DNA from: Nitrosococcus oceani ATCC 19707
Lineage (GTDB): Bacteria > Pseudomonadota > Gammaproteobacteria > Nitrosococcales > Nitrosococcaceae
Length of the DNA stretch: 32,000 bases
Direction: 5' to 3'
NCBI RefSeq assembly: GCF_000012805.1
Contig: NC_007484.1
Location: 600,001 to 632,000 of the forward strand
The stretch's first letter is position 1; every line of letters starts with the position of its first letter. This document shows positions 7,728 to 22,312 of the stretch, one piece after another. The position numbers and the translations under genes were made by a program. The notes beneath the pieces are model-generated. The model worked only from the letters and a program-made list of their open reading frames with translations. It was not told where the DNA came from and searched no databases.

Positions 7728-8919
7728 ACGGTTACAGCACGCTTTTTTTTCTTGGGGGTGGTTATTGCCTACCGTGTTGCCTATTGCTCAGGTATTAGGA
7801 AGGGCAGTATTTAGCATTTTGATCGTACTTTATGTTTTATGGGGAACGCTTAGTTTATATGGCCAGCAAAAAAGTATAGAACGCCCCGTATTAGGATTAT
7901 TTATCGGCCTGCTGTTGGCTTTTCTCATGAGCGTTCCGGGAGCTGAGGATCTGGGAAGGGCATGGCACAAATGGCTTAAATATCTAGTCTACTCCATGAG
8001 TTTCGTCTTCACCCTGGTGGCTTTGCAGCAAGGGCAAGAGAACTTTGAGCATCTTTGTCGAGCTTTTGCCCTGGCGGGGGTAGGGTTATTGGTGGTGCTT
8101 TACTTGCATTTAGCCTATGTGTTGTGGAGCAGTGCAGAATTCGATCCTGCCCAGCAACTTAAGGAAGATAATCTTCCATTTTTGCTGCCCTTTCTCCTCC
8201 ATGGGCTGTTGCAGGCAGAGTTTAGAAAATACCGCATTTTGCTGGGCGTTGCTTTATTGTCGAGCGTATTATTTTATACCGTGCTGTCCGAAGGCAGGGC
8301 AGCGTTATTAGCACTAACGGTTGCGTTGGTATGCTATGGAGCGCTAGTAATGGGATGGCGCCTGAGGAGTTTGTTATTGCCAGCAATGTTAGCGACCGTT
8401 GCACTTATAGGCATGATGACCGTGATCCATGTGGAGTCTCCAGAGAAGGATAAAGAAACATGGACTGAGATTGTGGACCGGATCAGCAGTGGGCGGACGG
8501 TGCTTTGGCGTCAGGCGTTTGTTTACCCGCCTGAATCAGTGATAACCGGGGCAGGAATGGGCAATGCCCGTTATGCTGAGGAGGCATTGACTATAGGCGA
8601 GCAGGGACAAGTCCGCCATTTTCATAATTTGTTTATCGATGCTTGGTATGAAACGGGTCTACTTGGCCTGGCTGCAATGACGGGATGGCTGTTATTTATG
8701 CTATTCAGAGCGTGGCGGGATTGGCGAAAATCAGCCGCTGAGAACCGGCAGCAGATCGGGTTGCTGCTCTCTGCTAGCGCGGCTATTCTTACCGCTGCCC
8801 AGCTGGGGCCATCCTATGCTTCCAGTTTGGTCAGCGTGTACCTGATGGTAATTTTTGCCGCGTTAACGGACTGCCATGGAAAAATACAAAAGACATTGTT
8901 TACGCTGGGGAAGCAATAA
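7711..8919 (+). CDS. O-antigen ligase family (Wzy_C) membrane protein
   Basis: 402 aa, multi-pass hydrophobic, with GRTVLWRQAF...GAGMGN...HFHNLFIDAWYETGLLG, which resembles the Wzy_C / WaaL loop. Confidence 0.7.
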   Translation: MVVLHRRLQHAFFSWGWLLPTVLPIAQVLGRAVFSILIVLYVLWGTLSLYGQQKSIERPVLGLFIGLLLAFLMSVPGAEDLGRAWHKWLKYLVYSMSFVFTLVALQQGQENFEHLCRAFALAGVGLLVVLYLHLAYVLWSSAEFDPAQQLKEDNLPFLLPFLLHGLLQAEFRKYRILLGVALLSSVLFYTVLSEGRAALLALTVALVCYGALVMGWRLRSLLLPAMLATVALIGMMTVIHVESPEKDKETWTEIVDRISSGRTVLWRQAFVYPPESVITGAGMGNARYAEEALTIGEQGQVRHFHNLFIDAWYETGLLGLAAMTGWLLFMLFRAWRDWRKSAAENRQQIGLLLSASAAILTAAQLGPSYASSLVSVYLMVIFAALTDCHGKIQKTLFTLGKQ

Positions 8920-9340: not shown

Positions 9341-9491
9341 AAGTTGATATCAAGTTATCAAAGCAAATTCACCTAAAAATAAAGTTATCATGGCAAAGAT
9401 GCCTAATTTACTAGCTAATATCAACTTATCAGGGCGTATATGCTTGAGAATAAGTTGTTCGCGCCACTGCGCGGCGCGAATCGGGGAGTTG
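9341..9491 (+). promoter_or_regulatory. Array-proximal repeat cluster plus an orphan 5' half of a long attC-like site
   Basis: Repeat copies: AAGTTGATA 9341-9349, AAGTTATCA 9352-9360 and 9382-9390, CAACTTATCA 9422-9431, and inverted ATAAGTTG 9450-9457. An 8-bp hairpin pairs TTCGCGCC (9458-9465) with GGCGCGAA (9473-9480). The 21 nt GCGGCGCGAATCGGGGAGTTG at 9471-9491 are identical to 18640-18660. Confidence 0.5.
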
Positions 9492-9500
9492 GAGAATTAA

Positions 9501-9947
9501 ATGAAAGCTGATTTAGAGGGTTTGCTCTCGGCGATAAGGAATTACAGTCAAAATTATCGAAATTCTACGATGTATCCGCTTGAAGTAGCAGAGCCGTACG
9601 ACATGTCGCCTGAGCGCGACCGAACACCTGTGAAATGTAATGCCCAATGGCCGGAAATTTGGCCCCATGCTGCTCGTGCTGGAATATATGCTTTTCTGAA
9701 TGAAGACTCGGAAGTGATTTATGTCGGCAAGGCTTCACTCAGGAATTCTTTGGGCGCGCGCATCTCATCATATTGTGGTTACGGCGCTGATAGAGAGTGC
9801 CGCTTCTACGGCGAATGGAGAAGTCCTCCCCGCTACGTTTTAGTTGTTGCAGTTCCCGATGAAACTCGCTTTGAAGCGCCCGCTCTTGAGGAGTATCTAA
9901 TCCGTGAGTTACAGCCAAGCGACAATTCGGCTGGAATCGAGCGTTAA
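9501..9947 (+). CDS. GIY-YIG nuclease-domain protein (cassette 1)
   Basis: GIYAFLNEDSEVIYVGKA gives the GIY-x10-YVG motif. A downstream Arg (LGARISSY) and the EEYLIRELQPSDN Glu/Asn region follow. A GGAG SD lies 8 nt upstream of the ATG. Confidence 0.75.
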   Translation: MKADLEGLLSAIRNYSQNYRNSTMYPLEVAEPYDMSPERDRTPVKCNAQWPEIWPHAARAGIYAFLNEDSEVIYVGKASLRNSLGARISSYCGYGADRECRFYGEWRSPPRYVLVVAVPDETRFEAPALEEYLIRELQPSDNSAGIER

Positions 9948-9957
9948 ATGTGCAACC

Positions 9958-10030
9958 ATATAACAAATCACTGCACCTGACCGCTATTCCGCTGCGTTCC
10001 ATAGCGGCAAGTGAGCTTCGGCGGTTAGGC
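9958..10030 (+). repeat. attC site (73 bp)
   Basis: The site runs ATATAAC...GTTAGGC. Internal arms pair: TCACT/AGTGA and CCGCTAT/ATAGCGG. Unpaired bases sit on the 5' arm. Confidence 0.8.
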
Positions 10031-10106
10031 GCCAAATGCCAACGGAATTGAGTATCCGGAGTAAAGTGAATTACGTTCTGGACGCGGAGAGAAATGGGAG
10101 ACACTT

Positions 10107-11528
10107 GTGAAAAGACCTGACTACTTGTCATCCGGCGAGCTCGGTCGCCTGATCCCTGTAGCGACAAAGCCCGAGCTCAGAAATACCTGCGTCACCTCAG
10201 CCATGCTCATGGCTGTTGAAGAATTCGCAGAGGCGCTTTTAGGGGCTTTGGGTGCCCCAACCGGCAAACGCGCCAAAACTCACGTTTGGCTTGAACCGGT
10301 GTTTAAATCCTCCAAAAACGACAACAAAGATCGTCCGGATGCCCTGATTATCGTAAATAACGGTCGGCGGGAATGGCGAGCGTTAATGGAGGCGAAGGCC
10401 AAGGGTGCTGATCTGGATGCCGACCAAATTGAGTGCTACTTGGACATCGCCAAAGTCCAAGGTGTGGATGCCGTTGTGACCATTTCCAACCAGTTTGTTG
10501 CAACGCCCACTCAATCGCCCTGCGACATCAACCGGCAGAAGTTGAAAAAGGTGGCTCTGTTTCACTGGTCGTGGTCTTTCCTTCAGACAGAAGCAAAAAT
10601 TCAGCTTTCAAAGAGCGCGGTTTCTGATCCAGATCAGGCTTACATGCTCGAGGAGTACGTCCGCTACCTCGAACACGATTCATCTGGTGTCAGTGAATTC
10701 GAGCAAATGGGCAAGGAATGGGTCGAAGCTTGCAAGCTCTATTTCGCTAAATCCAAACTCGACAAAAAATCCCCGATGGGGGCTGCTGTCGTAAGCGACT
10801 GGGACGAGCTGATGCGTTGTACCGCTCTCCTGATGAGTCGAAATTTGGAAACAAACGTGACGACGGTGCTAAGCGCGAAGGAGAGGAAAGATCCGAATGG
10901 CCGTTCGGAGTCCATGCAAAGTTCGTTTGTTTCTTCGGGGGAACTTAAAAGCCGATTGGAAATTCCCGATGCGGCTTCGCCAATTTCTGTTGAAGCGGAC
11001 CTGACCCGACGTTCTGTTACGGTTTCTATGACCGTAGATGCGCCAAGGGACAAGAAAAGGGCTCCTGCAACGGTTACATGGCTGCTGCGCCAACTCGTCA
11101 AAACTGAGGATGGCAGCATTATGTTGGTTGCCAAATGGCCAGGCCGCACGCAGGACACTTGTGCAGAACTCGTAAAAGTTAGAGAAGACGTCGATGCTTT
11201 GGTGGGGGATAGAAAAGGTCAACTCCCTCGCACTTTTGAAATACGGGCAGTATCGGACCTCGGTGGAAAATTCACGCAACGGCGTAATTTCGTGCCGGAA
11301 TTGGTGTCGTGCGTCACGCGATTTTATGAAGCCGTCGGGCAGTATGTTGTTCCGTGGCAGGCACCTCCCCCCAAGCCCAAGAAGCCGGTACAAGTAGAAG
11401 AATCCTCTGAAGAAAGTACAGGCCCAGAGGCTGGAGAAATCAGTGCCCAACAAATCGCTCCAGGTGCGTTTGAGGCGTCGGCTATTTTTGCATGCGCAAA
11501 AATAGCCGACGCCTCAAACGTCACCTGA
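10107..11528 (+). CDS. Uncharacterised 473-aa protein with an N-terminal PD-(D/E)xK (Mrr-like) nuclease motif (cassette 2)
   Basis: DRPDALIIVNNGRREWRALMEAKAKG gives PD...E-A-K, followed by VDAVVTISNQF. The C-terminal roughly 270 aa is not recognised. GTG start with GGGAG 6 nt upstream. Confidence 0.6.
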   Translation: MKRPDYLSSGELGRLIPVATKPELRNTCVTSAMLMAVEEFAEALLGALGAPTGKRAKTHVWLEPVFKSSKNDNKDRPDALIIVNNGRREWRALMEAKAKGADLDADQIECYLDIAKVQGVDAVVTISNQFVATPTQSPCDINRQKLKKVALFHWSWSFLQTEAKIQLSKSAVSDPDQAYMLEEYVRYLEHDSSGVSEFEQMGKEWVEACKLYFAKSKLDKKSPMGAAVVSDWDELMRCTALLMSRNLETNVTTVLSAKERKDPNGRSESMQSSFVSSGELKSRLEIPDAASPISVEADLTRRSVTVSMTVDAPRDKKRAPATVTWLLRQLVKTEDGSIMLVAKWPGRTQDTCAELVKVREDVDALVGDRKGQLPRTFEIRAVSDLGGKFTQRRNFVPELVSCVTRFYEAVGQYVVPWQAPPPKPKKPVQVEESSEESTGPEAGEISAQQIAPGAFEASAIFACAKIADASNVT

Positions 11529-11543
11529 TCTCGGTCGTTATAC
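11445..11543 (+). repeat. attC site (99 bp) embedded in the 3' end of the preceding CDS
   Basis: GCCCAAC (a perfect RYYYAAC) at 11445-11451 and GTTATAC at 11537-11543. The 5' box AACAAATCGCTCCAGGTG closely matches the other sites (AACAAATCGCTGCAGTTG). The centre is a perfect 25-bp inverted repeat (11467-11491 / 11496-11520) with a 4-nt loop. Confidence 0.7.
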
Positions 11544-11678
11544 GCCAGCAATATTGGCTAAGGAACAATATGCATTTTGATCAAAACGATTATCCAAAAA
11601 TAAAAGCTGCTTGTTGAGAATAAAGAGCAAATTGAGTTCGTCGCGCCAAAAGCAATAACCGGCTTTGCTGATAGCGAT

Positions 11679-11888
11679 GTGGAGGTTCCAGACGAGTGGC
11701 AAGCGTTCCCACCGGCACTTCTACCTCCCCAGGGATATGCGGAGGTATTTATCTATTCAGGCAATGATGCCCGAGATGCTTTAACACGGTTGGAGCTAAT
11801 CGTTCACCTTGACGGCGGAAGCATCTTATACAAAAAAGCCGACTCTGATTCGGTTGGAATTAGAGTAACTTGGCCTGATGAAGCATAA
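11679..11888 (+). CDS. Hypothetical 69-aa cassette protein
   Basis: GTG-initiated ORF whose TAA stop lies inside the GCATAAC box of the next site, as is typical for cassette ORFs. No recognisable family. Confidence 0.4.
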   Translation: MEVPDEWQAFPPALLPPQGYAEVFIYSGNDARDALTRLELIVHLDGGSILYKKADSDSVGIRVTWPDEA

Positions 11889-12029
11889 CGAAACGCTGCA
11901 GTTGACCGCCCAAAGCGCTGGCGCGCTTTCGCCTCGCGAACAACCGTTCGACGGGAAGAACCTTCTGCATAATCAGATGCCGCACATCCATTATCCAGGA
12001 GAACCCGCCGGTCAACTCCCCGATTATGC
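11883..12029 (+). repeat. Long attC-like site, copy A (147 bp; conserved module 11934-12029)
   Basis: The 5' half is canonical (GCATAAC gaaacgctgc AGTTGACCG). The 3' part is the conserved 96-nt module ending CGGTCAACT ccccg ATTATGC. AGTTGACCG pairs with CGGTCAACT, and GCATAA pairs with TTATGC. Confidence 0.65.
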
Positions 12030-12055
12030 CACAGAATCAAAAAGAGCCATGAAAG

Positions 12056-13751
12056 ATGGAAGCCTCAACAACTATTAGAAAGATGATGGCAGGCAACAAA
12101 ATTGTCGTACCTGCATATCAGCGTGCGTATTCGTGGGATACGCCGATGGAGAAATCAGACAGAAACACGCAAACAGATGTGTTCGTGTCGGATTTAGAGA
12201 AATACAGCAGAAGTAACGCAACTAGTCCCTATTACTTTGGGCCATTTCCTTTTTGAGGAGAAAACACAAAAGTTCAATGTAATAGACGGCCAGCAACGCT
12301 TAACAACCATTGTCATTTTCTTATCGGTCCTGTTTGCCCAGCTGAAATCAATAAGAGATTTATCGGAGGAAGAAGAAATATGCTATGAAGATATGGTGAA
12401 GAGGCGAAGCGCAATACGCTTTTGGACTGTTGACTACGATAATCAATTGTTCATTGACTATGTAATAGACCAAAGCAAGTCTGAACATAATGGCCTTGAA
12501 ACGGAATCGTCACGACGAATCGTCAGCGCATTCGACTTTTTCAAAAATCATCTTTCTGATAAACCAGAAGAGTATCTAACAAAAATGCTGTTGATTGTTG
12601 CTGGGGCAGCTTGTACCACGCACCCGGTTCAAAATGAATCGGAGGCGATACAGATGTTTATCTTTCAAAATAGTCGCGGAAAACGACCGTCAAATCTTGA
12701 AATAGTGAAAGCCCAATTCATGCATCATGCTCACCTGCATGGGGGCGCCAAAGATGAAGTTGATTCGTTAATTGGTGAAATCAAAGGGCGTTTTGAAAAA
12801 ATCTACAAATCAATTTCTTCAATCGAATACAGAATTAATGAAGATGATGTTTTGCTATACACCTTGCGGGTTCACTTTAACTCGCTCTGGGAAACAAACT
12901 CTTTAGACAAAATCAACAAGATGTTGGCCGATGGAAATCCACTTGATTTCATCAAGTCGTTCTCGAGGTCGCTCTCGACAAGTTTTGAACATCTGTCACA
13001 GTTTTTTGGCAAGCATGAGAGAGAAAACTTTGCGATTCATTCTCTAATATCACTAGGCGGGATAGCTGTTGCGCTTCCATTTGTCATTAAGGCATACAGA
13101 TATGGCTTGTCTCTTGATCAAATTGGCAAACTTTGCTGGTCTTTGGAATCTTTAGTGCTTCGGCATCGTTTAATCGGGACAAGGGCAAATATTATTTCAA
13201 GAATCAACGATGTATTCGAGAAATTCACCGAAAGCAACAAAGACATTTCCCCAGTAATTGACCATATTGAATGGATGAAGACGACAGATGATTGGTGGTG
13301 GGCCTACTGGAACAATGACAGGTTGAAAGAATCCATCCAAGGAGGAATCAATCATTCAACCGCAAAATACCTTCTCTGGAAATATGAGGTTCATTTAGAG
13401 CAGCAGGGTAAAGCCGGTTATTCACCAATCCGGTTTGATAATATCATCAGTCCTGAGCTGGAACATATCGCCCCCACGACGGAACCTGAAAGTAAGCCCC
13501 ATGGCTATGATGATTATGACGATGAGTTCAGGAACCAATATCTAAACACTCTTGGCAACTACCTGTTGTTATCAAAGTCGCATAATTGCGCGGTTGGCAA
13601 TATTCTGCTTTCCCAAAAATTAGCCACATATACCCATAATGAACAGCAGAGAGAGGTGAGGAGCCTTGTTCCTAAAAACGGAATATGGAGCAAAGAAATA
13701 ATACAACAACGGAAAAATAAGATCATTGGTGTAATCATGATCATTTGCTAA
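12056..13751 (+). pseudogene. GmrSD-like DUF262/DUF1524 nuclease, frameshifted near 12239-12242
   Basis: ORF 12056..12256 (VPAYQRAYSW...SPYYFG) and ORF 12237..13751 (HFLFEEK..IDGQQRLTT...ELEHIAP...LGNYLLLSKSHNCAVGN) form one DUF262 (DGQQR) plus DUF1524 (His-Me finger) protein. It is split by a 1-nt shift in the TTTGGGCCATTTC run. Confidence 0.8.
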
Positions 13752-13756
13752 GAATA

Positions 13757-13829
13757 GCATAACAAAACGCTGCACTGGACGGGCTATTCCGCTGCGCTCC
13801 ATAGCCGCCAGTGAGCTTGGTCGTTAGCT
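13757..13829 (+). repeat. attC site (73 bp)
   Basis: GCATAAC...GTTAGCT with arms GGGCTAT/ATAGCC and CGCTGCACTGG/CCAGTGAGC. It is highly similar to the site at 9958-10030. Confidence 0.8.
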
Positions 13830-13844
13830 TTCAGAACGAGAAAT

Positions 13845-14807
13845 ATGGTGCAGAATTCAATATTTGTCGTAAATAAAGAGCCATACTGTATTTGGGAAAT
13901 TGATATGGCCGAAAGAAACGGTGAGTTTCTTGATGGAATCGACGTAAATTACTTTGATTATTTGCTTAATGTATACCTTGATTCTGAGGACGAAAAAAGA
14001 GCGGCTATTGCACTCAGGGCCACTCTGCATCATGCAATGGAAACTATGTTTTTATTGTTAGGCGCATACATTCAGGCGCCAGACTGTGCATATGCATGGA
14101 TAGCCAAATGCTCAAACAACGACTTACGGCAGTTAGTGAAAAATATTAGTGGCTATCACAATACGCTGTTTACAAAGCTTAATGTTAAACAAGTGTCATG
14201 GGAGTCTATTTCAAAATTAGTATTCCAATGCTACAAGCCCGATAGTGATAGAAACACACAAACAACAAAGTTATTTGCCTCACTATGGCAAAGATTAGCT
14301 CATGATTTAATTGATGCGAATCATGTTGACGAATATAACAGTATCAAACATGGGTTTAGGGTTCGTTCTGGGGGTTTTTCTCTCGCAGTAGGGTTGGAGC
14401 ATGAATATGGGGTAGCCCCGCCCGCTGAAGAAATGAAAATGGTAGGCTCATCCGAACATGGTTCTTCATTTTTTAAAATAGAACCTGTAGGGACATCAAA
14501 GCGCAATAGAAGCCTTAGATCCAAAAGAACCTCAATAAATTGGAAGATTGAAAAGGTTGCCTTACTTATTCAATTGGTATCAATGTCGATAAACAATATC
14601 GTTTCAGCATTGAAAATTGCCAATGGGGCAACTGCAGGCACATGCCAATTTCTGCGTCCTGAGGAAGATGCTGATTTCGATAAACCTTGGTCTTACTCTA
14701 CAGGCGTTACAAGCTGCAATATGGATTTTGTTATTAATGAAGATGATGTTGTTTCAACAACAAGAAATGAGCTATTGGAAAGACTTAATGAGCACAAGAA
14801 AAGCTAA
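13845..14807 (+). CDS. Hypothetical 320-aa cassette protein (AT-rich)
   Basis: Long ORF between two attC sites, with its stop in the AGCTAAC box. No confident family. It contains LRATLHHAME and YNSIKHG, weak HEPN-like strings. Confidence 0.6.
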   Translation: MVQNSIFVVNKEPYCIWEIDMAERNGEFLDGIDVNYFDYLLNVYLDSEDEKRAAIALRATLHHAMETMFLLLGAYIQAPDCAYAWIAKCSNNDLRQLVKNISGYHNTLFTKLNVKQVSWESISKLVFQCYKPDSDRNTQTTKLFASLWQRLAHDLIDANHVDEYNSIKHGFRVRSGGFSLAVGLEHEYGVAPPAEEMKMVGSSEHGSSFFKIEPVGTSKRNRSLRSKRTSINWKIEKVALLIQLVSMSINNIVSALKIANGATAGTCQFLRPEEDADFDKPWSYSTGVTSCNMDFVINEDDVVSTTRNELLERLNEHKKS

Positions 14808-14889
14808 CAAGGCAAATGCACTCGGACAGCAAAAAACGCCGCTCCTTCGTCGCTCTGCTTTTTGCTGTCGGTGATTTGCGGCGATAGGT
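14802..14889 (+). repeat. attC-like site with a degenerate 3' core (GATAGGT)
   Basis: AGCTAAC at the 5' end. Long arms GCAAATgCACtCGgACAGCAAAAA / TTTTTGCTGTCGGTGATTTGC carry three unpaired bases on the 5' arm. The 3' core reads GATAGGT rather than GTTAGGY. Confidence 0.65.
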
Positions 14890-14935
14890 CGGCGCTTCGC
14901 GCCGACCCATTATGGCTATTTTGGAGGAATTGAAT

Positions 14936-15376
14936 ATGGAATGCTTTATGGATCACATCGTTTTGAATGTGGAAGATAGCAAAAATATGATGGCCTTTTA
15001 TTCAAAAATACTCATGTTTGCACCCGAACGCCTGGAGGAATACGACGCGGGGAAGGTACCATTCCCGTCTATACGACTGAACTCGAATACGATCATCGAC
15101 CTGTTCCCGAAAAAGATGTGGCAGAAAGACGCTCGGGACGAGCAAAGTAGTGAGAACTTGAACCATTTCTGTATTGCTTTGAGTAAGGGGACGTGGCAGG
15201 AACTTTTAGAGCGACTTAAGGCCAATAACATTAATATACAAGAAGGACCTGTTCCACGATGGGGTGCGCACGGTACAGGAACATCCATCTATTTCCAAGA
15301 CCCGGAGGGAAACCTAATCGAAGCACGATATTATGAGGACAAAAATAATGTGGAAAAATGCCTCCTTGGTTCTTAG
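14936..15376 (+). CDS. VOC / glyoxalase-bleomycin resistance-dioxygenase family protein
   Basis: MDHIVLNVED...LNHFCIAL...GTSIYFQDPEGNLIEA matches the paired beta-alpha-beta-beta-beta VOC pattern. GGAGG lies 8 nt upstream of the ATG at 14936. Confidence 0.75.
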   Translation: MECFMDHIVLNVEDSKNMMAFYSKILMFAPERLEEYDAGKVPFPSIRLNSNTIIDLFPKKMWQKDARDEQSSENLNHFCIALSKGTWQELLERLKANNINIQEGPVPRWGAHGTGTSIYFQDPEGNLIEARYYEDKNNVEKCLLGS

Positions 15377-15419
15377 TCGACAAAAGTTGTTTTCGGACCA
15401 TTCCACACCGATGATATTC

Positions 15420-15596
15420 ACATAACCATGCTTTTGCAGCGGAGCAAAAAAAACTGCGCCCGCTAAAAAGCGACGTTACGGTTGCCTGCGCCGCTACGCG
15501 TCGCGAACAACCGTTCGACTGGCAGAACCTCCTGCATCATCAGATGCCGCACATCTATTATCCAGGAGAACCCGCCGGTCAACTCTCCGATTATAC
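15420..15596 (+). repeat. Long attC-like site, copy B (conserved module 15501-15596)
   Basis: The 96-nt module differs from copy A at about 7 positions by hand alignment and ends ATTATAC. The upstream ACATAAC box at 15420-15426 is a tentative 5' boundary. Confidence 0.55.
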
Positions 15597-15608
15597 GAGT
15601 AATCGAAT

Positions 15609-16133
15609 ATGGTAAATCTTGAGCAAATTCTCCGCGACCTTGATCTCTCCGCCATAGCGCCTGGAAGCGATAAGCTCGATGAATGCCGGTTTTTTCTTTC
15701 TGCATTGAAGTCGCAAACAGAACGTCAATTCTTCCGTTGGTATTTAAGCGCGTATCTTGGTGCGACTTATAGCTATCTGGAGATCAAGGCGCTTGAGCTC
15801 TATTTCTCATCCTGCGATCCAGAAAACGGCGAGTCGGTAAAAGACGAGGCCGGACTGTCAGTGCTTCGGGAGTACGTTCGCGTGTTTCAGGAAAAAAAGC
15901 GCCCAGATTTTATTAAGACTTCAGGAAAAGCTGAAACGGCAAAAAAACTATACGAGATCCGGAAACAAAATACGCACCTACGGGCATTACCGATAATGGA
16001 AGGTCCTGTGCACGATCAACAACAGCAGTTTCTCATCGGCGAATATCGTGAAAAAGGTATCCCCGCTGTTGAATTTTGCGAAGAAGTTCAAAGCATGCTG
16101 GACCAAATCGATGCTGTCCTTGCATCTGTATAA
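15609..16133 (+). CDS. Hypothetical 174-aa cassette protein
   Basis: ORF bounded by site B and the attC at 16128, with its TAA in the GTATAAC box. The composition looks alpha-helical. It contains YEIRKQNTHLRAL (an R-x4-H string). Confidence 0.55.
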   Translation: MVNLEQILRDLDLSAIAPGSDKLDECRFFLSALKSQTERQFFRWYLSAYLGATYSYLEIKALELYFSSCDPENGESVKDEAGLSVLREYVRVFQEKKRPDFIKTSGKAETAKKLYEIRKQNTHLRALPIMEGPVHDQQQQFLIGEYREKGIPAVEFCEEVQSMLDQIDAVLASV

Positions 16134-16202
16134 CAAATCGCTGCAGTTGACCGTCTAAAGCGCTGCCGCGCTTCGGTCGGCAACTGAGCTTGGGCGTTGA
16201 GC
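16128..16202 (+). repeat. attC site (75 bp)
   Basis: GTATAAC aaatcgctgc AGTTGACCG ... CGGTCGGCAACT gagcttgggc GTTGAGC. Confidence 0.8.
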
Positions 16203-16266
16203 CTTTTACGCAGGTTTCATATCATGAGGCATTGACGGTATGTAGCCAGAAGGCTACAGTTTGATT

Positions 16267-16555
16267 ATGCCTGAGATTCGCAAGACCGAAGCCTATGCCA
16301 AGTGGCTCGATGGTTTACGCGATATCCAAGCCCGAGCTCGTTTTAGTACGGGTGGAGCGCTTGGCAGCCGGAAATTCGGGGGATGTTAAGCCCGTGGGTG
16401 AAGGTGTTTCAGAGTTGCGGATCGATTACGGACCCGGCTATCGGGTGTACTATAAAAAGCAAGGCAAAAAGGTCATTATTTTACTAGCTGGCGGCGACAA
16501 ACGTTCCCAGGCCAGTGATATCAAGACGGCCTTACGCCTTGCTCGGAACCTGTAG
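16267..16555 (+). pseudogene. RelE/ParE-superfamily 'addiction module killer' toxin, frameshifted near 16339-16345
   Basis: Frame 1 from the ATG at 16267 reads MPEIRKTEAYAKWLDGLRDIQARAR. Frame 2 continues LVRVERLAAGNSGDVKPVGEGVSELRIDYGPGYRVYYKKQGKKVIILLAGGDKRSQ. Together they match the TIGR02683-type killer protein. The break lies at the T-run GCTCGTTTTAG. Confidence 0.75.
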
Positions 16556-16564
16556 GAACGTACC

Positions 16565-16918
16565 ATGACCAAGACTATGACTACCCCCTACGATGTCGCC
16601 GAGCACCTTCGCACGCCCGAGGAAATGGCTGCTTATCTAGAAGCTTGCCTTGAGGAGGCTGATGGGGACGCTGCATTCGTTGCCAAAGCTCTGGGCGATA
16701 TTGCCCGCGCCAAGGGTATGTCTCAGGTGGCACGTGATGCTGGTCTGTCCCGCGAAAGTCTTTACAAGGCACTTTCTGGCGAACGAAGCCCAGGCTTTGA
16801 CACAATTCTCAAGGTCATACGAGCCTTAGGCTTAAAATTGCATGCTGAAGCAGTTATCGTATTTGACTCAACGGCCCAACAAAGCGCTCCAGCCGAGGCT
16901 CGTGCCTCGCGCGGCTGA
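16565..16918 (+). CDS. Addiction module antidote protein (HTH, TIGR02684-like)
   Basis: YDVAEHLRTPEEMAAYLEACLEE.DG...AKALGDIARAKGMSQVARDAGLSRESLYKALSGERSPGFDTILKVIRALGLKLHAEA. The C-terminal tail runs into repeat C. Confidence 0.8.
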   Translation: MTKTMTTPYDVAEHLRTPEEMAAYLEACLEEADGDAAFVAKALGDIARAKGMSQVARDAGLSRESLYKALSGERSPGFDTILKVIRALGLKLHAEAVIVFDSTAQQSAPAEARASRG

Positions 16919-17050
16919 GTTTTGACGTTCGCGCCGCTGCGCATCGCTAACAACCGTTCGACTGGCAGAACCCCCTGCATAATCAGACGCCGTGCGCCTA
17001 TGTATGCAGGAGAACCCGCTCGTCAACTCCCCGATTGAGCTTGTAACCCG
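16908..17050 (+). repeat. Long attC-like site, copy C (conserved module 16954-17050)
   Basis: This is the most diverged copy. It ends ATTGAGC and has no clear ..TAAC 5' box. Its inner stem is CCTGCATA/TATGCAGG, where the other copies have CTCCTG/CAGGAG. The 5' boundary is approximate. Confidence 0.5.
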
Positions 17051-17075
17051 AGGCGTATCAGGTTACGATTCGTCC

Positions 17076-17354
17076 ATGATCAAGGGATTCCGACACAAGG
17101 GCCTGGAGCGCTTCTTCCGATCCGGCAGCAAAGCCGGTATCCAAGCCAAACACGCTGATCGGCTACGTTTGATACTGGCACGTCTGCACGCGGCGAATGG
17201 TTCGGAGGATATGGATCTACCGGGATTAGCGCTGCATCCTTTGAGTGGAGACCGTAAAGGCACCTGGTCGGTCCAGGTCAGCGGAAATTGGCGCGTTACC
17301 TTCATGTTTGAAGATGGCGATGCTTATGTTGTCGATTATGAAGACTACCACTGA
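17076..17354 (+). CDS. higB: HigB-like toxin (plasmid maintenance system killer family)
   Basis: [15 protein letters not shown]...[17 protein letters not shown]......[41 protein letters not shown] is the classic HigB-2 / PF05015 pattern. The start is taken at the ATG at 17076, not the ORF-track start at 16992, which lies in repeat C. Confidence 0.85.
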
Positions 17355-17364
17355 GGTTGAGGCT

Positions 17365-17688
17365 ATGCGTATGCACAATCCCCCTCATCCCGGCGAAGTT
17401 CTGAAGAGCTTGTGTTTGGAACCGCTGGGATTGAGTGTTACAGAGGCAGCGGAAGCACTTGGAGTCAGTCGCAAGACGCTTTCCAGTATTCTAAACGGGC
17501 GAGCCGGCATCAGCCCGGAGATGGCCATTCGCCTGTCCATGGCGTTTGGTACGTCCGCAGAGAGCTGGCTGAATCAGCAGTCGATGTTTGATCTTTGGCA
17601 AGCCGAGCGACGCGGGCCAAAGCCGCGTGTCAGGCGATTCAAGCCTACTCATCGCGAGCCCAACAATGGGTTGGAGCCGACACACTGA
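17365..17688 (+). CDS. higA: HigA antitoxin (XRE-type HTH)
   Basis: [65 protein letters not shown]. It starts 10 nt after higB. Its C-terminal tail overlaps the next attC. Confidence 0.85.
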
Positions 17689-17715
17689 AGTGCGCGGCTC
17701 AACCCACCGTTATAC
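17658..17715 (+). repeat. attC site (58 bp)
   Basis: GCCCAAC aatgg GTTGGAGCCG ... CGGCTCAAC ccacc GTTATAC. The arms pair with one extra G on the 5' arm and both spacers are 5 nt. Confidence 0.7.
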
Positions 17716-17732
17716 CGGATGAGGATACATCA

Positions 17733-18096
17733 ATGGCTATTTATGGAGTGGGAACAAATTGGGACGGAGAAGAGCAGAAAGATCGGTTTTTTTCCGAAGG
17801 AAAATTTATCCTCGGCTGGAATCAACGATCGGCCAGGTTCTCGGTCAATACGAGTGAAAGGAATTGGCATAGTAAAGCGCAGCTTGATGTCTTGCATGCT
17901 TGCCGGCGAATTAGAGGATAATGCTAGTAATTGGAACTCGCTCTTTGTGCATGTCGAGTGGTTAGTAAAAAAGGAATTCAAGGTCGAAATAGAGCCGGAT
18001 CACGGCCGCCTCACGAATATTCGGGCTGCTACCGTCTATGAAGAATATTTGCCCCAACTGCAAGAGTGCATCATCACTAGGCTTATAGATGTATAA
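17733..18096 (+). pseudogene. Hypothetical cassette gene, apparently disrupted (two frames)
   Basis: MAIYGVGTNWDGEEQKDRFFSEGKFILGWNQ (frame of 17733) appears to continue in the frame of ORF 17719..18096 (..DRPGSRSIRVKGIGIVKRS...VEWLVKKEFKVEI...YEEYLPQLQECI), whose TAA lies in the GTATAAC box. The junction is near 17830-17845. The homology is recalled only vaguely. Confidence 0.4.
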
Positions 18097-18165
18097 CAAA
18101 GCGCCGCAGTTGACCGCCTACGTCGCTGGCGCTCCTCCGGCGGCAACTGAGCTCAGGCGTTATGC
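18091..18165 (+). repeat. attC site (75 bp)
   Basis: GTATAAC aaagcgccgc AGTTGACCGCC ... GGCGGCAACT gagctcaggc GTTATGC. Confidence 0.8.
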
Positions 18166-18419
18166 CGACAAGAAACATGACAGTGAAGGCAACGAAATAC
18201 TTCCAGGCAACTCGGGTCAGACCGGATCGAGCGATAATCAAGGACGAATGGATTCAGCATGTAGTCCGGTTCCCTGAAAGAGAGTACATACAGGCAGACG
18301 GTCGAATAAGGCGATGGGCTAGAATTGAAGAAATGGAAAACCGATACCTGCGGGTAATCTTATTGTCGGATGGTAAAACCGTACACAACGCATTTTTTGA
18401 CAGAGGGTACAAGGCATGA
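18162..18419 (+). CDS. Putative toxin, DUF4258-like, paired with DUF2283
   Basis: 85 aa with ..RPDRAIIKDEWIQHVV.FPEREYIQADGRIRRWARIEE.ENRYLRVILLSDGKTVHNAFFDR. The ATG lies within the GTTATGC core (alternative ATG at 17 nt downstream, 18177). It has a 4-nt ATGA overlap with the next ORF. Confidence 0.5.
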   Translation: MPTRNMTVKATKYFQATRVRPDRAIIKDEWIQHVVRFPEREYIQADGRIRRWARIEEMENRYLRVILLSDGKTVHNAFFDRGYKA

Positions 18420-18613
18420 AAGTCAGCTATTTCGAAGACACAGACACGCTGTACATCGAGTTCCGCGACAATGACATAGCTGAGTCTAAAGACTTAGATG
18501 AGAACACTATTCTCGATGTGGATGCCAACGGTAACGTTTGCGCTATCACGTTCGAGCATGCAAGCCAGCGCACTGATGTAAGCCGTTTGATTGTCGAAGG
18601 CATTGCGGCATAA
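18416..18613 (+). CDS. DUF2283 family protein (putative antitoxin)
   Basis: MKVSYFEDTDTLYIEFRDN...ENTILDVDANGNVCAITFEHAS is the typical DUF2283 pattern. The TAA stop lies inside the GCATAAC box. Confidence 0.7.
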   Translation: MKVSYFEDTDTLYIEFRDNDIAESKDLDENTILDVDANGNVCAITFEHASQRTDVSRLIVEGIAA

Positions 18614-18794
18614 CAAGTCCATCCAACCGACGCCAAAAAGCGGCGCGAATCGGGGAGTTGACTGCGCTAAACGGCTGCCCGCGCCGCTTCGCATCGCATC
18701 GCTAACAACCGTTCGATTGGCAAAACCTCCTGCATAATCAGATGCCTCACATCTATTACCCAAGAGAACCCACCAGTTAGCTCCCCGATTATGT
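18608..18794 (+). repeat. Long attC-like site, copy D (187 bp; conserved module 18699-18794)
   Basis: GCATAAC at 18608-18614. AATCGGGGAGTTGAC (18646-18660) pairs with the 3' end AGTTAGCTCCCCGATT. The site ends ATTATGT. Confidence 0.6.
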
Positions 18795-18978
18795 GCACAA
18801 AGCCCGAAGCATTTGGTAGCATGATCCTGACGCCTCTAGGAGGTGAACGGGCGCCCATTAGGCTGTTCTCTGAACAGGCCCCGGGGGATGGGCTCTGCAA
18901 GCTCCGTCCAATTGGAAACTTACTTTTACGCGGTTGCGCCCGTGGGAGGCCCGGTCCTAGATCGGGCCTTTTGTCTTT
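18795..18978 (+). ncRNA. Candidate structured leader or non-coding RNA upstream of the reverse transcriptase
   Basis: About 185 nt with no convincing CDS and nested stems: GCCCAT...ATGGGC encloses CTGTTC-tct-GAACAG. A GC hairpin plus T-tract directly abuts the RT start codon. No SD precedes the RT ATG. Confidence 0.4.
18947..18978 (+). terminator. Intrinsic-terminator-like hairpin immediately 5' of the RT start
   Basis: AGGCCCG gtcctagat CGGGCCT followed by TTTGTCTTT. The RT ATG is at 18979. Confidence 0.5.
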
Positions 18979-20397
18979 ATGCCAATGAGATTCGAAGAGC
19001 ACCTTGAACGGGTCATCGCCGAGGAGGCAGATAAGCTAATTCAGAGATATCATGCTTATCACAACGCGCTTCACGTTGAACACCGTCGAAACTTGAAACG
19101 CATAAAAAATGCGCCGCCGAAGGTCGTCGAAGTTCCTGACTACTGGCAGCAGGATTTAAAGTTCAATCCGTTCTACGTTAAATCTCGGCGTAAGAGCATT
19201 GCCAGATCGATAACAAAGAAGCTCTCGAACAGCTCCTATACACCCCGGGATCCACACATCAAAGAGATCCCCAAACATGGCGGCGACGTGCGAAAGGTTG
19301 CCGTCTACTAGATCCCAGATGCCGCTGTTTCGAGGATTTTTTACGAGCGCCTGCTTGACAAGAACAAGCACAGATTCAGTTCGTTTTCGTACGCATACCG
19401 CAACGACCGAAACGTACACTTCGCCATTCAAGACATTTGGCTTGATGTGTCACGCGATGCCAGAGCATTTATCGCTGAGTTCGATTTCTCGGATTTTTTT
19501 GGTTCGATTTCCCATGAGTACCTTCGAGAGCAATTCGACTGCAACGGCTTTTATATCAGCGATGAAGAGCGCGTCGTTATTGACGCATTCTTGCAGTCGC
19601 GGGAGGTTGGGATTCCGCAGGGCACCTCAATCTCTCTGTTCTTAGCGAACTTGGTTTGCTGGAGGCTTGATCAGGAGTTTGAGCGGGCCGGCCTCAAATT
19701 TGCCAGGTACGCAGATGACACGGTGATATGGAGTCAGAGCTATCAGCGCATCTGCGATGCCTTTACCATCATCAACGATTTCTCAGCAGCAACCGGCATA
19801 AAGATCAACCCCAAGAAGTCTGATGGAATAAGCCTTCTTACACGTCCAGGTCTGCCGGCTGAACTTGCGAATACGAAGAGCTCCATCGACTTCCTGGGCT
19901 GCTCCATTTCTGTTAATTCAGTCGGCATCAAAAAGGCTTCGGTGCAGAATGTTCAGCAGCAGATTTCATATCTTCTTTATCGGAACCTTTTGCAGCCGTT
20001 GAGAGGGAAACAGCTCCGCGGACTTGTTATTCCTGCTAATGGCGAGGACCCAGCCCTCCTAACGGCGATGTTGCAAATTCGTCGTTATCTTTACGGTGGC
20101 TTGACCAGCCAACAACTCCGGAACTACATCAGTGGCCGGTCGAAGCGCATACATTTCAAAGGAATCATGAGCTTCTACCCGTTGGTCAATGACGAAGAAC
20201 AACTTCGATTTCTTGATGGGTGGCTAGTTTCGACAATCTTTAGGTCAGTTCAATTGAGGTCGAAACTCCTCAAAAAGTGGAAGCATGATCAATCGCATCA
20301 GTTTCCCTTCAATGTTCCGAGAGATGAGCTCGTTGCACGTTTCAAGGAACAGCGTATTGGGCGAAGTCGTCCGCTCGAAGTGCCGATTTTACCTTGA
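18979..20397 (+). pseudogene. Standalone reverse transcriptase (UG/Abi/DRT-like, not retron or group II) with an in-frame TAG at 19309-19311
   Basis: ORFs 18979..19311 and 19447..20397 share one frame and are separated only by a single TAG. RT motifs run in order: IPKHGGDVRKVAVY(*)IPDAAVSRIFYERL, FDFSDFFGSISH, GIPQGTSISLFLANL, ARYADDTVIW, GIKINPKKS, IDFLGCSIS. A C-terminal region of about 170 aa follows. Confidence 0.8.
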
Positions 20398-20489
20398 TCC
20401 AGAAGGCTCTAGAAGAAGGCCTTAAGGGACGCGGGATCGAGGGCGTAATGAATCCGGAAGCCAATGAATACAACTATTGAAGCGTCCGC

Positions 20490-20523
20490 ACATAACAAAC
20501 GCACCCGAGTTCAGGCGTTAAGG
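20490..20523 (+). repeat. Minimal or internally deleted attC-like remnant (34 bp)
   Basis: ACATAAC aaacgcacccgagttcaggc GTTAAGG. The two ends match the canonical sites (ATAACAAA.CGC... / ...GAGCTCAGGCGTTA), but the central arms are missing. Confidence 0.5.
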
Positions 20524-20529
20524 GTATAG

Positions 20530-20937
20530 ATGAAACTGGAAACACAGGTCACCGGAAATATCGGCCTTTATTACGTGTGCTATCACCTATCCCGACTGGG
20601 CTGGAATGTTATGCCAACCTCTCGGAATGCACGCGGAATTGATGTTATAGCCTATGATCGCACAGGAACTGAATTTATTGGCGTCCAAGTGAAAGCACTC
20701 ACAAAGCGCAATCCTGTCCCTCTCGGCAATAGCCTGGATAAGGTCATGGGAGACTTCTGGGTCATCGTTAACAATATCGGAAAGGAGCCGCAAACTTACG
20801 TGCTTCTTCCTGAAGAAGTAAAAAAACTGGTTCATAGGGGGGAGAAGGACGGTCGGGTCAGTTATTGGTTGCAGCCAAAATCTTACTGCGTGGATGAGTA
20901 TTTTGAGGCTTGGGGCCGCATCGGTCGGGGGCATTAA
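20530..20937 (+). CDS. Small PD-(D/E)xK-fold nuclease-like protein (135 aa)
   Basis: GNIGLYYVCYHLSRLGWNVMPTSRNARGIDVIAYDRTGTEFIGVQVKAL shows the helix ... D(GID) ... Q-V-K arrangement of small restriction-endonuclease-like proteins. Confidence 0.55.
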   Translation: MKLETQVTGNIGLYYVCYHLSRLGWNVMPTSRNARGIDVIAYDRTGTEFIGVQVKALTKRNPVPLGNSLDKVMGDFWVIVNNIGKEPQTYVLLPEEVKKLVHRGEKDGRVSYWLQPKSYCVDEYFEAWGRIGRGH

Positions 20938-20939
20938 AC

Positions 20940-21011
20940 CCTTAACAAGTGCATTAAATTCGTTCTGGCCCGATGGGCCTCCGGAGACGCCCTAGTCGGG
21001 CGCTGTTTATT
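20940..21011 (+). repeat. Possible terminal, poorly formed attC-like site (72 bp)
   Basis: CCTTAAC aagtgc ... GCCCGAtGGGC ctccggagac GCCCtagTCGGGC gct GTTTATT. The outer TAACAAGTGC pairs approximately with GCGCTGTTTA, but the 5' arm has a 15-nt unpaired insert and the 3' core is not GTTRRRY. Confidence 0.35.
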
Positions 21012-21316
21012 CTCATCTATGGAGCCACACCGGGCCATAGCCGTGGCAGATATATTGACAGCCCCCCTGCTTGGCTGATCAACCCATGGTTCAAGCTCGC
21101 ACTCGTTGTCGTGGGTCTTTTCATTATAGGTGCTTCACTCCACATAGCTAAATTCATCGCCTGCGGATCACCCTGCCCAAGCAGGCTAACCAGTGGCTGC
21201 TTTGGTTCCATCCTGCTATTATCGCCAACCTCAAGCGCCGTCTCTTGGGTGTTTGCCATGGCGCTTCCAAAGCCAGTGTACAAACATACCTCAGTGAATT
21301 TTGCTACTGTATAAAA

Positions 21317-22312
21317 ATGCAGCGAATATTGATCATTAAATTAGGGGCGCTCGGTGATATTATCATTGCGACCCCCCATATCAAACGAATCGTGGAGGGC
21401 TATCCCGAGGACGAGGTTTGGCTGCTCACCGCGCCGGGGTTTGCTGGCCTGTTTGCAGGCTATCCTAATCTACAAGTGAAGTCTTTCCCGAGAAAAGGCA
21501 TCCAGTCCCTGTTCCCTCCCCTAGGATGGATACGAAGCCAGGGTTTTCAAATGGTGTTCGACTTGCAAGGGAGCGACCGTAGTAAAACCATGGTGGCCCT
21601 TTCCGGGGCTGCCCGGCGCTACGGTTTAGGCCCAGGTTTCCCTTATACTCACTGCCCGCCTAACAAGGGAATTGTGGGCAAGGACGCCCATAGTTTCAGC
21701 CGCCTGAACCGGCTATTAGAAACGACGGGGTTGCCACCGGCACAGGCGGGTCCTTATCTTGAGGCCAGTGATGAGCAACGCCAAAAAGTAAAGGATTGGC
21801 TGGCAGAAAAAAGGCTGCTGGGAAGAGAGATCGCCCTCATCCATGCTGGTTCCAGCGCCCGTTGGGAGAGCAAGCGGTGGGCGGCCGCCCATTTTATTAC
21901 CCTGGGAACGATTCTGGAGCAGCAGGGGGTCGTGGTCATCTGGGTGGGCGGCTCGGAAGATGCTGAATTAAACCAAACCCTCTCCCAAAATATCGGTATG
22001 GATGCAACGGGGGATTTTTCTCTTCTGGAGCTTGTCGCGTTAGCGCGCCATGCCCGTTTTGCGGTGACCACCGACTCAGCGCCTATGCATGCTATCGCTG
22101 CTGCCGCTATCCCCGTTTATGCTTTGTTTGGACCCACCGACTGGCGCCGCAGCCATGCCGTTGGTCAGCAGCAGCGCGTTCTTGTGCATCCGGTAGCCTG
22201 CAGCCCGTGTTACCTGCCCGAGTGTCCCCCGCGGAATGCTCACCGTTGCCTGGCACAATTGCAGCCGGGGGAAGTGTTGGCACGCCTGCGCCAGGACGGG
22301 ATGCTGGGATAA
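21317..22312 (+). CDS. Glycosyltransferase family 9 (heptosyltransferase-like)
   Basis: MQRILIIKLGALGDIIIATPHIKRI... and ..TTDSAPMHAIAAAAIPVYALFGPTD are GT9 motifs. The ATG at 21317 is chosen over the ORF-track start at 21245. Confidence 0.8.
   Translation: MQRILIIKLGALGDIIIATPHIKRIVEGYPEDEVWLLTAPGFAGLFAGYPNLQVKSFPRKGIQSLFPPLGWIRSQGFQMVFDLQGSDRSKTMVALSGAARRYGLGPGFPYTHCPPNKGIVGKDAHSFSRLNRLLETTGLPPAQAGPYLEASDEQRQKVKDWLAEKRLLGREIALIHAGSSARWESKRWAAAHFITLGTILEQQGVVVIWVGGSEDAELNQTLSQNIGMDATGDFSLLELVALARHARFAVTTDSAPMHAIAAAAIPVYALFGPTDWRRSHAVGQQQRVLVHPVACSPCYLPECPPRNAHRCLAQLQPGEVLARLRQDGMLG

Follow-up and report, generated by a model that had tools for sequence, protein, structure and literature searches.

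A pseudogenised DRT9 reverse transcriptase and its upstream RNA in a probable integron-type cassette of Nitrosococcus oceani ATCC 19707

The locus described here lies in the finished genome of Nitrosococcus oceani ATCC 19707, in a stretch of 32,000 nt of contig NC_007484.1 (referred to as the window) whose genes include Noc_0564 and Noc_0575. It holds a reverse transcriptase (RT) gene of the DRT9 (UG28) family, preceded on the same strand by a non-coding RNA (ncRNA) of the DRT9 type and enclosed by the boundaries of a cassette. The RT gene carries two real lesions, and its function has been lost recently. For comparison, 80 DRT9 loci were taken from GTDB genomes; the two closest intact relatives are a locus in an Oceanococcus metagenome-assembled genome (MAG), designated L001, and a locus in a Rhodanobacter MAG, designated L002. 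The features of the N. oceani locus (SL, stem-loop) are the following:

18610..18794, + strand: attC-like site of the preceding cassette, a long repeat of the type called D1, with R'' GCATAAC at 18610-18616, the R' equivalent ATTATGT at 18788-18794 and the junction at 18788/18789.
18789..20517, + strand: mobile unit of the size of a cassette (1729 nt), made up of the promoter, the ncRNA, the RT gene and an attC of its own, here deleted, with ~90% DNA identity to the Oceanococcus and Rhodanobacter MAG loci, whose flanks are unrelated.
18814..18822, + strand: extended -10 element TGGTAGCAT (TG at 18814-15, hexamer TAGCAT at 18817-22), recognised by its conservation; putative promoter of the ncRNA/RT transcript.
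18824..18977, + strand: DRT9 ncRNA (scaffold and template), the sole match of a covariance model in the window (139 bits, E=1e-33); the predicted transcript spans ~18829-18978.
18831..18845, + strand: SL1 (CGCCUC UAG GAGGUG), with compensatory changes in 6/6 pairs and 100% of cells paired in a 24-sequence subset (95.9% after realignment).
18847..18856, + strand: 5' strand of the long-range closing helix, ACGGGCGCCC, whose partners are 18932-18933 and 18936-18943; compensatory changes are seen in helices 2 and 3, which are 97-100% paired.
18916..18931, + strand: single-stranded template loop AAACUUACUUUUACGC, with the conserved ACTTACTTTTAC and the U4 tract at 18924-18927.
18932..18943, + strand: 3' strand of the closing helix, GG..GCGCCCGU, with CCGUG as an invariant motif, from the alignment and the consensus structure.
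18944..18978, + strand: hairpin SL6, GGGAGGCCCGGUC/GAUCGGGCCUUUU, of 13 bp (18944-56 / 18960-72), and U-rich tail UUUUGUCUUU, found by a terminator scan and abutting the ATG.
18979..20480, + strand: DRT9 (UG28) RT pseudogene, 500 codons if repaired, delimited by the PADLOC Drt9 profile, the PDB DRT9 chains and homologue lengths.
19309..19311, + strand: lesion 1, an amber TAG in place of the invariant Gln111, upstream of RT motifs 2-7.
19708..19719, + strand: YADD catalytic box (TAC GCA GAT GAC), read directly from the sequence.
20386..20387, + strand: lesion 2, a one-base deletion in the Ser469 codon leading to a premature TGA at 20395-20397, from DNA alignment to L001 and L002.
20388..20480, + strand: out-of-frame C-terminal tail, FTLIQKALEEGLKGRGIEGVMNPEANEYNY followed by the stop, whose translation agrees with homologue C-termini.
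20490..20523, + strand: remnant of the cassette's own attC, with R'' ACATAAC at 20490-96, R' GTTAAGG at 20517-23 and ~60 nt of its centre missing.

The frame that opens at the ATG at 18979 holds 472 sense positions and then the TGA at 20395-20397, with one TAG inside it at codon 111. A first-pass annotation made from the letters alone had described this frame correctly, and the strings that it singled out are all present: the YADD box, NPFYV, IPKHGG, VAVY and IPDAAVS on either side of the amber codon, and DFLG. With the amber read as Gln, the RT matches the PADLOC profile Drt9 (UG28) with E=7.8e-202 and 669 bits over profile positions 2-458 of 488. The runner-up is a generic RT profile (104 bits), followed by RT_UG26, RT_UG17 and Drt2 at 77-86 bits. 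The DRT9 chains 9ioa, 9iob, 9nlv, 9nlx, 9vku and 9vma of the PDB are matched with E=2.2e-205 (query 3-500 against chain 1-498), and RVT_1 is the sole Pfam domain in the protein. A large protein database contains 1469 relatives, nearly all of 497-502 aa and the best of them 92% identical, and the homologues examined measure 498-500 aa. Residues Y244, A245, D246 and D247 of the catalytic box are invariant in an alignment of 31 DRT9 RTs. According to these data, the RT belongs to the UG28/Drt9 clade over its whole length. The earlier proposal of an RT of the UG/Abi (DRT) kind, different from those of retrons and group II introns, is therefore borne out by the profile placement; it had likened the system to DRT2, DRT9 and DRT3 without choosing among the three, and the choice now falls on DRT9.

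The first-pass annotation had counted a single in-frame interruption, a number that had to be raised to two. The first lesion is the amber codon. At this position Gln is invariant in the 31 aligned RTs and present in 55 of 58 loci, and the codon is CAG in L001 and L002, so that the TAG represents the single C-to-T transition (CAG to TAG) that had been suspected from related RTs. The second lesion lies near the 3' end, where the window reads CCGA-TTTTACC and both L001 and L002 read CCGAGCTTTACC, with one base missing between 20386 and 20387. Because of this loss, the TGA at 20395-20397 is an artefact of the frameshift, and the true end of the gene is the TGA at 20478-20480 in the shifted frame. 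Homologue C-termini read ...RPLEVPSFTLIQRALE.GLK.RGIEGVMNPEANEYNY; the window frame ends after ...RPLEVPILP. Through the deletion at codon 469, the final 31 codons of the gene, among them both priming-tyrosine codons (TAC at 20469-71 and TAT at 20475-77), are out of frame. In the 31-sequence alignment Y498 is invariant and Y500 is conserved in at least 90%, and in SenDRT9 the residues Y496/Y498 are those that prime DNA synthesis (PMC12483538). The YADD box and the C-terminal tyrosines, which a DRT9 RT carries in one polypeptide, are not joined in this way in the window gene. The locus is filed as a pseudogenised DRT9 descendant and not as a working system, because its YADD and Tyr codons are cut off from the start, and from each other, by the amber codon at 19309 and by the loss of 1 nt at 20386/87. 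The repair of TAG to CAG alone, which had been suggested as an experiment, would not restore an active enzyme given the frameshift at the 3' end.

In four other loci of the comparison (L027, L047, L049 and L055), the open reading frame (ORF) from the expected start has just 15-175 codons, though tblastn covers the whole RT; these loci may be pseudogenes or reflect MAG errors.

The region between the cassette boundary and the RT gene is the DRT9 ncRNA. In the systems characterised to date, SenDRT9 (Tang et al. 2025, Nature, PMC12483538) and EcDRT9 (EMBO J 2025, PMC12489045), which have also been reviewed (PMC13434031), the ncRNA consists of stem-loops, an irregular loop with the U4 template, and a 3' SL6 with a U-rich region (PMC12483538, PMC12489045). 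In 77 of 81 sources, a covariance model built from a 24-locus subset of the DRT9 loci gives a single match, located immediately ahead of the RT. After realignment to this model, compensatory changes are seen at 46 of 50 pairs, and the share of paired cells is 81.6%, compared with 58% for shuffles and no more than 49% for slid controls; this alignment is fitted to the model itself, and helices 6 and 9 remain weak even so (~45% paired). None of 500 shuffles reaches the observed values of pairing and covariation. With an alignment made by MAFFT alone, support is confined to SL1, the closing helix and SL6; the pairing of the internal stems is 31-58% in it and rises to 65-72% after covariance-model realignment. 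The same three elements are supported by RNAalifold on a 57-sequence alignment (17 of 22 pairs compensatory), and they are 93-100% paired in the 24-sequence subset, SL6 with ~93-94% of its cells paired and 10-11 compensatory pairs. The single-sequence fold of the leader is moderately better than that of shuffles (z = -2.35), so that the strong structural evidence is comparative and does not come from the fold itself.

Sequence conservation points in the same direction. Close to the 5' end of the RT gene, nearly all of the 80 loci show AACUUACUUUUAC, followed by GGUU, CCGUG, a variable hairpin and a U-tract, and the template motif, CCGUG and GAACGG are invariant in the 57-sequence alignment. 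The ACTTACTTTTAC of the template loop is invariant or nearly so upstream of DRT9 RTs across phyla. The UUUU at 18924-18927 lies inside the conserved ACUUACUUUUAC and is unpaired in both the minimum free energy and the consensus structures. The poly-dA template has been shown experimentally to be U123-126 in SenDRT9 (PMC12483538) and U124-127 in EcDRT9 (PMC12489045).

A cis-encoded ncRNA upstream of the RT had thus been rightly anticipated. Intact orthologues with a different and unstructured upstream region would have spoken against it, and the opposite was found, that is, the same region with a covarying structure. The ~185 nt of nested stems that had been described stand as a structured RNA, with a corrected length of ~150 nt (18824/18829-18978); positions 18795-18823 correspond to the cassette boundary and the -10 element. 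What had been called a terminator abutting the start codon is SL6 of the DRT9 ncRNA: the hairpin occupies 18944-18972, and the U-rich tail ends at 18978, as reported. According to Tang et al. (PMC12483538), SL6 and the U-rich 3' region are dispensable for synthesis, and they have been suggested to act as a transcription terminator. No Rfam 15 family corresponds to the leader or to the repeats of the window, the only match being a chance one to IRES_Bip (whole window at the gathering threshold; 18550-19050 at E<=10).

The window ncRNA is ~30 nt shorter than the 184-188-nt ncRNAs studied so far because it lacks one stem-loop. The ncRNAs of the comparison fall into length classes. Those of the enterobacterial/Vibrionales type (L009, L011, L013, L016, L018, L020, L025 and L067) have an additional stem-loop of ~26-30 nt and matches of 179-184 nt, in contrast to the window, L006 and L060. 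The ncRNAs of the window type measure ~154 nt, and those of the Marinobacter loci, devoid of one further hairpin, measure 139 nt. Calls of ORFs of 53-65 aa overlie the ncRNA in the window (18791-18988 and 18843-19007) and in L083 (7840-8001); one such ORF is annotated in a related contig and is probably a mis-annotated RNA gene.

The boundaries of the unit are given by its relatives. DNA similarity (~90%) to L001 and L002 is confined to 18789-20498. It starts exactly at 18789, the position of integron crossover, where L001 and L002 read G|TTATGTGCAC (GCG|TTATGTGCAC) and the window reads A|TTATGTGCAC, and at its 3' end it enters ACATAACAA, the R'' box (ACATAAC) of the cassette's own attC. The homology to copies elsewhere thus runs from G|TTRRRY to the unit's own attC, the extent by which an integron cassette is recognised. 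The bottom strand of the upstream attC-like site folds as a long bulged hairpin (z = -3.1). At the downstream site, L001 and L002 have an attC of 99 nt whose bottom strand forms a bulged hairpin (z -6 to -7); the copy in the window, of 34-36 nt, folds weakly (-3.3 kcal/mol) and does not qualify as a functional attC. The window copy is a degenerate cassette. This cassette context is an addition to what the first-pass annotation had proposed.

How often DRT9 travels in this way is a separate matter. A purpose-made attC scanner run on 70 loci flagged L001 and L002 only, with L004 as marginal, and flagged none of the controls; L003 and L013 also have attC-like flanks as judged by eye and by folding. 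The contigs of the relatives P0002 and P0005 show no obvious attC flanks, nor do those of other relatives, so DRT9 relatives are not all in cassettes. The notion that DRT9 commonly resides in cassettes has the support of no more than a handful of loci. A DNA search of a plasmid collection with the cassette gave no match.

Taken as a whole, the locus is with high probability a DRT9 (UG28) antiphage module, composed of its own extended -10 promoter, an ncRNA of ~150 nt and an RT of 500 codons, that N. oceani acquired as an integron-type cassette and that was recently inactivated. In intact relatives, following the published work on DRT9 (PMC12483538, PMC12489045, PMC13434031), the ncRNA would be transcribed, mostly terminating at SL6, and would scaffold the RT in a hexamer of RT-ncRNA units. 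Upon phage infection, the RT would prime on a C-terminal tyrosine and copy the U4 tract of the ncRNA loop (18924-18927 in the window) reiteratively, the product being a kilobase-long poly-dA that would block the phage. In N. oceani, the change of CAG to TAG would halt translation at codon 111, ahead of RT motifs 2-7, and since the priming tail is in addition out of frame, the system should be inert. The truncations predict that poly-dA synthesis, hexamer assembly and phage defence would be absent from N. oceani. The locus is, in short, a dead copy of a known DRT9 system and an ordinary decaying defence gene.

Several points weigh against this interpretation. The mechanistic steps are all transferred by analogy from the E. 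coli and Salmonella DRT9 systems, and the functional equivalence of an ncRNA ~30 nt shorter is assumed in the same way. The R' box of the upstream site reads ATT and not GTT, and the downstream attC is a remnant of 34 nt. No integrase is encoded in the 32-kb window, where no tyrosine recombinase appears among the searched ORFs of at least 100 aa. Finally, a scan for the sigma-70 consensus found no full promoter or canonical -35/-10 pair, and the promoter is represented by the conserved -10-like element alone.

The age of the inactivation bears on the first of the alternatives. Compared with the intact L001 and L002, the RT gene shows a nonsynonymous divergence (dN) of ~0.023 and a synonymous divergence (dS) of ~0.6, with a dN/dS of 0.037; on the window branch alone, dN is 0.018, dS 0.51 and dN/dS 0.035. 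There is no excess of replacements, and therefore the RT would have been under strong purifying selection until very recently; its inactivation appears to be recent. The leader differs from those of L001 and L002 at 3-5 positions, all of them within 18799-18820, and 18821-18978 (158 nt) is identical in the three, far tighter than synonymous sites. The ncRNA of the window appears intact by every criterion applied. This raises the possibility that the RT is dead but that its ncRNA has been kept as an orphan RNA with a function, which it might exert either together with an RT from another part of the genome or by acting as a regulator or decoy. The absence of substitutions in 158 nt against a synonymous divergence of ~0.5 on the window branch would be well explained in this way, as would the preservation of the -10 element and of all invariant nucleotides, with a covariance-model score among the best. 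Nevertheless, the same pattern is expected from a very recent inactivation, as the dN/dS of the window branch indicates, no second ncRNA or RT of the DRT9 type is present within the window, and the DRT9 ncRNAs in the literature work exclusively with the RT cognate to them (PMC12483538, PMC12489045), so that a retained orphan RNA is unlikely. The more specific proposal that the promoter and the ncRNA (18814-18978) are still expressed and selected for in their own right as an orphan RNA, acting for instance with an RT partner in trans or by titrating a phage or host factor, is quite unlikely as well; if it were true, a DRT9 ncRNA would have a function independent of its cognate RT.

It is very unlikely that the RT is still made by recoding, with read-through or suppression of the amber codon and a programmed frameshift serving as a safety catch on a toxic abortive-infection enzyme. 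Such a catch would agree with the perfect preservation of the ncRNA and the promoter and with a coding sequence free of relaxed constraint. However, neither lesion occurs in any of the examined homologues, which have Gln in 31/31 aligned sequences and 55/58 loci and their C-terminus in frame, and two independent non-conserved events in one gene make an unparsimonious device. TAG is an ordinary stop in this genome: it ends 8 of the 31 window genes, speA and speE among these, which rules out amber reassignment, and a tRNA scan of the window found no tRNA gene and no suppressor. Even a product of amber read-through would still lack its primer, because the tyrosine-bearing tail is out of frame. 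The frameshift in the GmrSD gene of the same array fits decay.

It is harder still to believe that the gene is intact in the organism and that the amber and the frameshift are errors of sequencing or assembly. Each lesion involves a single base, and the rest of the gene is strongly constrained, as an error would leave it, but the exact 110-aa product (to the amber) is also found in the independent strain NS58 (GEM19887.1) and in 6 Logan contigs, and the exact 316-aa product (to the frameshift stop) on 9 Logan contigs. RefSeq carries RT fragments of 353 aa and 361 aa in two assemblies, and the housekeeping genes of the window are full length. The lesions are accordingly taken as real and fixed mutations, and not as sequencing errors or recoding, because truncated products recur in independent assemblies and TAG is an ordinary stop.

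That the gene encodes a retron or group II intron RT, with an msr/msd or intron RNA as leader, can be set aside, since its weak generic RT-domain similarity (TIGR04416, group II, 130 bits; NF038233, retron St85, 65 bits) lies far under the curated cut-offs of 300 and 235, as holds for all the NCBIfam group II intron, retron, Drt2 and Drt3a models, the Drt9 score stands at 669 bits against 104 for the next profile, Rfam finds no group II intron or retron RNA in the window or, at the looser threshold, in the leader region, no maturase or endonuclease domain is present, and the leader belongs to the DRT9 ncRNA family.

With the locus read as a broken DRT9 unit, its likeness to known systems can be specified. 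It shares with SenDRT9 and EcDRT9 the full-length RT homology, the YADD box and the C-terminal Tyr-x-Tyr codons, as well as an upstream ncRNA on the same strand with SL1, the closing helix, the ACUUACUUUUAC loop and CCGUG, and with SL6 and a U-rich tail before the RT. It differs from them in that the RT is broken by the amber at codon 111 and the -1 frameshift at codon 469, the ncRNA measures ~150 nt instead of 184-188 and is devoid of the enterobacterial-type extra stem-loop, the ATG lies against the SL6 U-tract with no Shine-Dalgarno (SD) sequence, and the host of the unit, an integron-type cassette, is a marine ammonia oxidiser. DRT2 (UG2, KpnDRT2) likewise combines an RT-only protein with an upstream structured ncRNA. 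The DRT2 ncRNA, of ~280 nt, gives rise to a gene (neo) through rolling-circle reverse transcription, whereas the template of the window is a U4 tract of the DRT9 type, and the Drt2 profile scores 77 bits against 669 for Drt9. Tang et al. (PMC12483538) place the template region similarly relative to SL2 in DRT2 and DRT9. Retrons are also bacterial defence RTs with a cis-encoded structured ncRNA as template; in contrast to them, the window has no msr/msd architecture, the retron RT models stay below their cut-offs, and DRT9 is protein-primed. Retron synthesis is primed from the 2'-OH of a branching G.

The carriage of defence systems by integron gene cassettes is established, as judged from the summary in PMC13434031 of Darracq et al. 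2025 and Kieffer et al. 2025 (Science). To the extent that this summary describes such systems, they share with the N. oceani locus a compact module bounded by attC, an array of the same orientation with toxin-antitoxin and defence genes, and occurrence in unrelated hosts. The N. oceani locus differs from them in having no integrase in 32 kb, a promoter-like element of its own, an internally deleted attC and an upstream R' with ATT. In the literature consulted, in which Darracq 2025 and Kieffer 2025 are represented by the summary in PMC13434031, DRT9 is not named as cassette cargo.

The putative promoter of the ncRNA and RT is a -10-like element with the consensus TGnTAnnnT, located a few bases upstream of the first stem; it reads TGGTACAAT in L002 and TGATAAAAT in L003 and L004. 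Across 57 DRT9 loci, positions 2 (A) and 6 (T) of the hexamer are conserved in at least 90%, at a constant distance upstream of SL1. At the other end of the ncRNA, the U-rich tail ends at 18978, directly against the ATG at 18979, and there is no SD sequence, as the first-pass annotation had observed. The same SD-less junction is common to the RT clade of the window (with L001, L002, L006, L060 and L081) and is also seen in L023 and L065. In L083, likewise devoid of an SD, 3-4 nt separate the U-tract from the ATG, and most other DRT9 loci have a spacer of 8-20 nt and a GGAG-like motif before the RT start. Since it is common to the whole clade, the SD-less junction is a feature of the lineage, unrelated to the decay of the gene. 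It might be speculated that translation without an SD relies on the U-rich tract and on read-through of SL6.

Apart from the cassette context, the shorter ncRNA variant and the SD-less junction, nothing at this locus is new, as DRT9 itself and its ncRNA were characterised in 2025. Song et al. (Science, 2025) reportedly also describe a DRT9 RT-ncRNA defence system. With the system already known and the N. oceani copy broken, the mechanistic import is small. The locus is a worked example of how a complete DRT9 unit (promoter, ncRNA and RT) travels among marine and environmental Gammaproteobacteria as an integron cassette of ~1.7 kb, and the natural ncRNA variant of ~150 nt, together with a start codon that abuts a terminator with no SD, could inform the design of minimal systems. 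It also corrects the RefSeq annotation, in which the pseudogene is currently split into 'hypothetical' and 'RT domain' fragments.

The cassette forms part of an array at 9450-21010 (~9.45-21.0 kb) of one- or two-gene units, all on the + strand, between attC-like repeats (RYYYAAC...GTTRRRY). This array is inserted between genes of the lipopolysaccharide (LPS) core, namely Wzy_C (7711-8919) and GT9 (21245-22312). Its cargo, rich in defence genes and in toxin-antitoxin pairs, comprises a GIY-YIG gene, GmrSD/DUF262, an AbiU2-like HEPN gene, a glyoxalase, Gp49/HI1420 and HigBA pairs, a DUF2283 pair, the DRT9 unit and a PD-(D/E)XK gene. A cluster of attC sites lacking an integrase is known as a CALIN, and the array is CALIN-like because the 32-kb window holds no integrase.

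Four long attC-like sites of ~110-180 nt (11882-12037, 15419-15597, 16931-17040 and 18610-18794) precede the GmrSD, AbiU2-like, HigBA and DRT9 cassettes, respectively. They share a core of 107 nt with 61-90% identity to the reference copy at 11921-12027 (80% for the copy at 18686-18792), and they end in GATTATG, GATTATA or GATTGAG, with ATT where the canonical R' has GTT; none of them matches Rfam. A reading of the D1 repeat as a sigma-54 or sigma-70 promoter was rejected because of its spacing, as judged by inspection only. At 9455-9495 and 18631-18662, both ends of the 107-nt repeat recur as partial, inverted copies joined head to tail (GCGGCGCGAATCGGGGAGTTG); the former pair immediately precedes the first ORF of the cassettes, and the latter lies within the attC-like site ahead of the DRT9 cassette.

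The GmrSD/DUF262 gene Noc_0564 (12053-12250 and 12237-13751) is frameshifted. The out-of-frame upstream peptide corresponds to positions 4-46 of Pfam GmrSD_N, a part absent from the main ORF, and the conceptual fusion covers positions 4-77 with E=2.5e-18. GmrSD is the second inactivated defence gene of the array, so that DRT9 and GmrSD are both decaying within an integrase-less cassette array embedded in an LPS-core locus. Between 17595 and 18096, two overlapping ORFs of 108 and 125 aa (Noc_0572, annotated with 66-125 aa across assemblies) look like one gene split by a frameshift, and their conceptual fusion has no family match. Relatives of Noc_0565 (13845-14807, 320 aa) that are at least 90% identical occur in Halomonas and Oceanospirillum, and those of Noc_0575 (20530-20937, 135 aa, PD-(D/E)XK), with the same minimum identity, in Marinobacter and Celerinatantimonas, a distribution consistent with a possible exchange of cassettes among marine Gammaproteobacteria.

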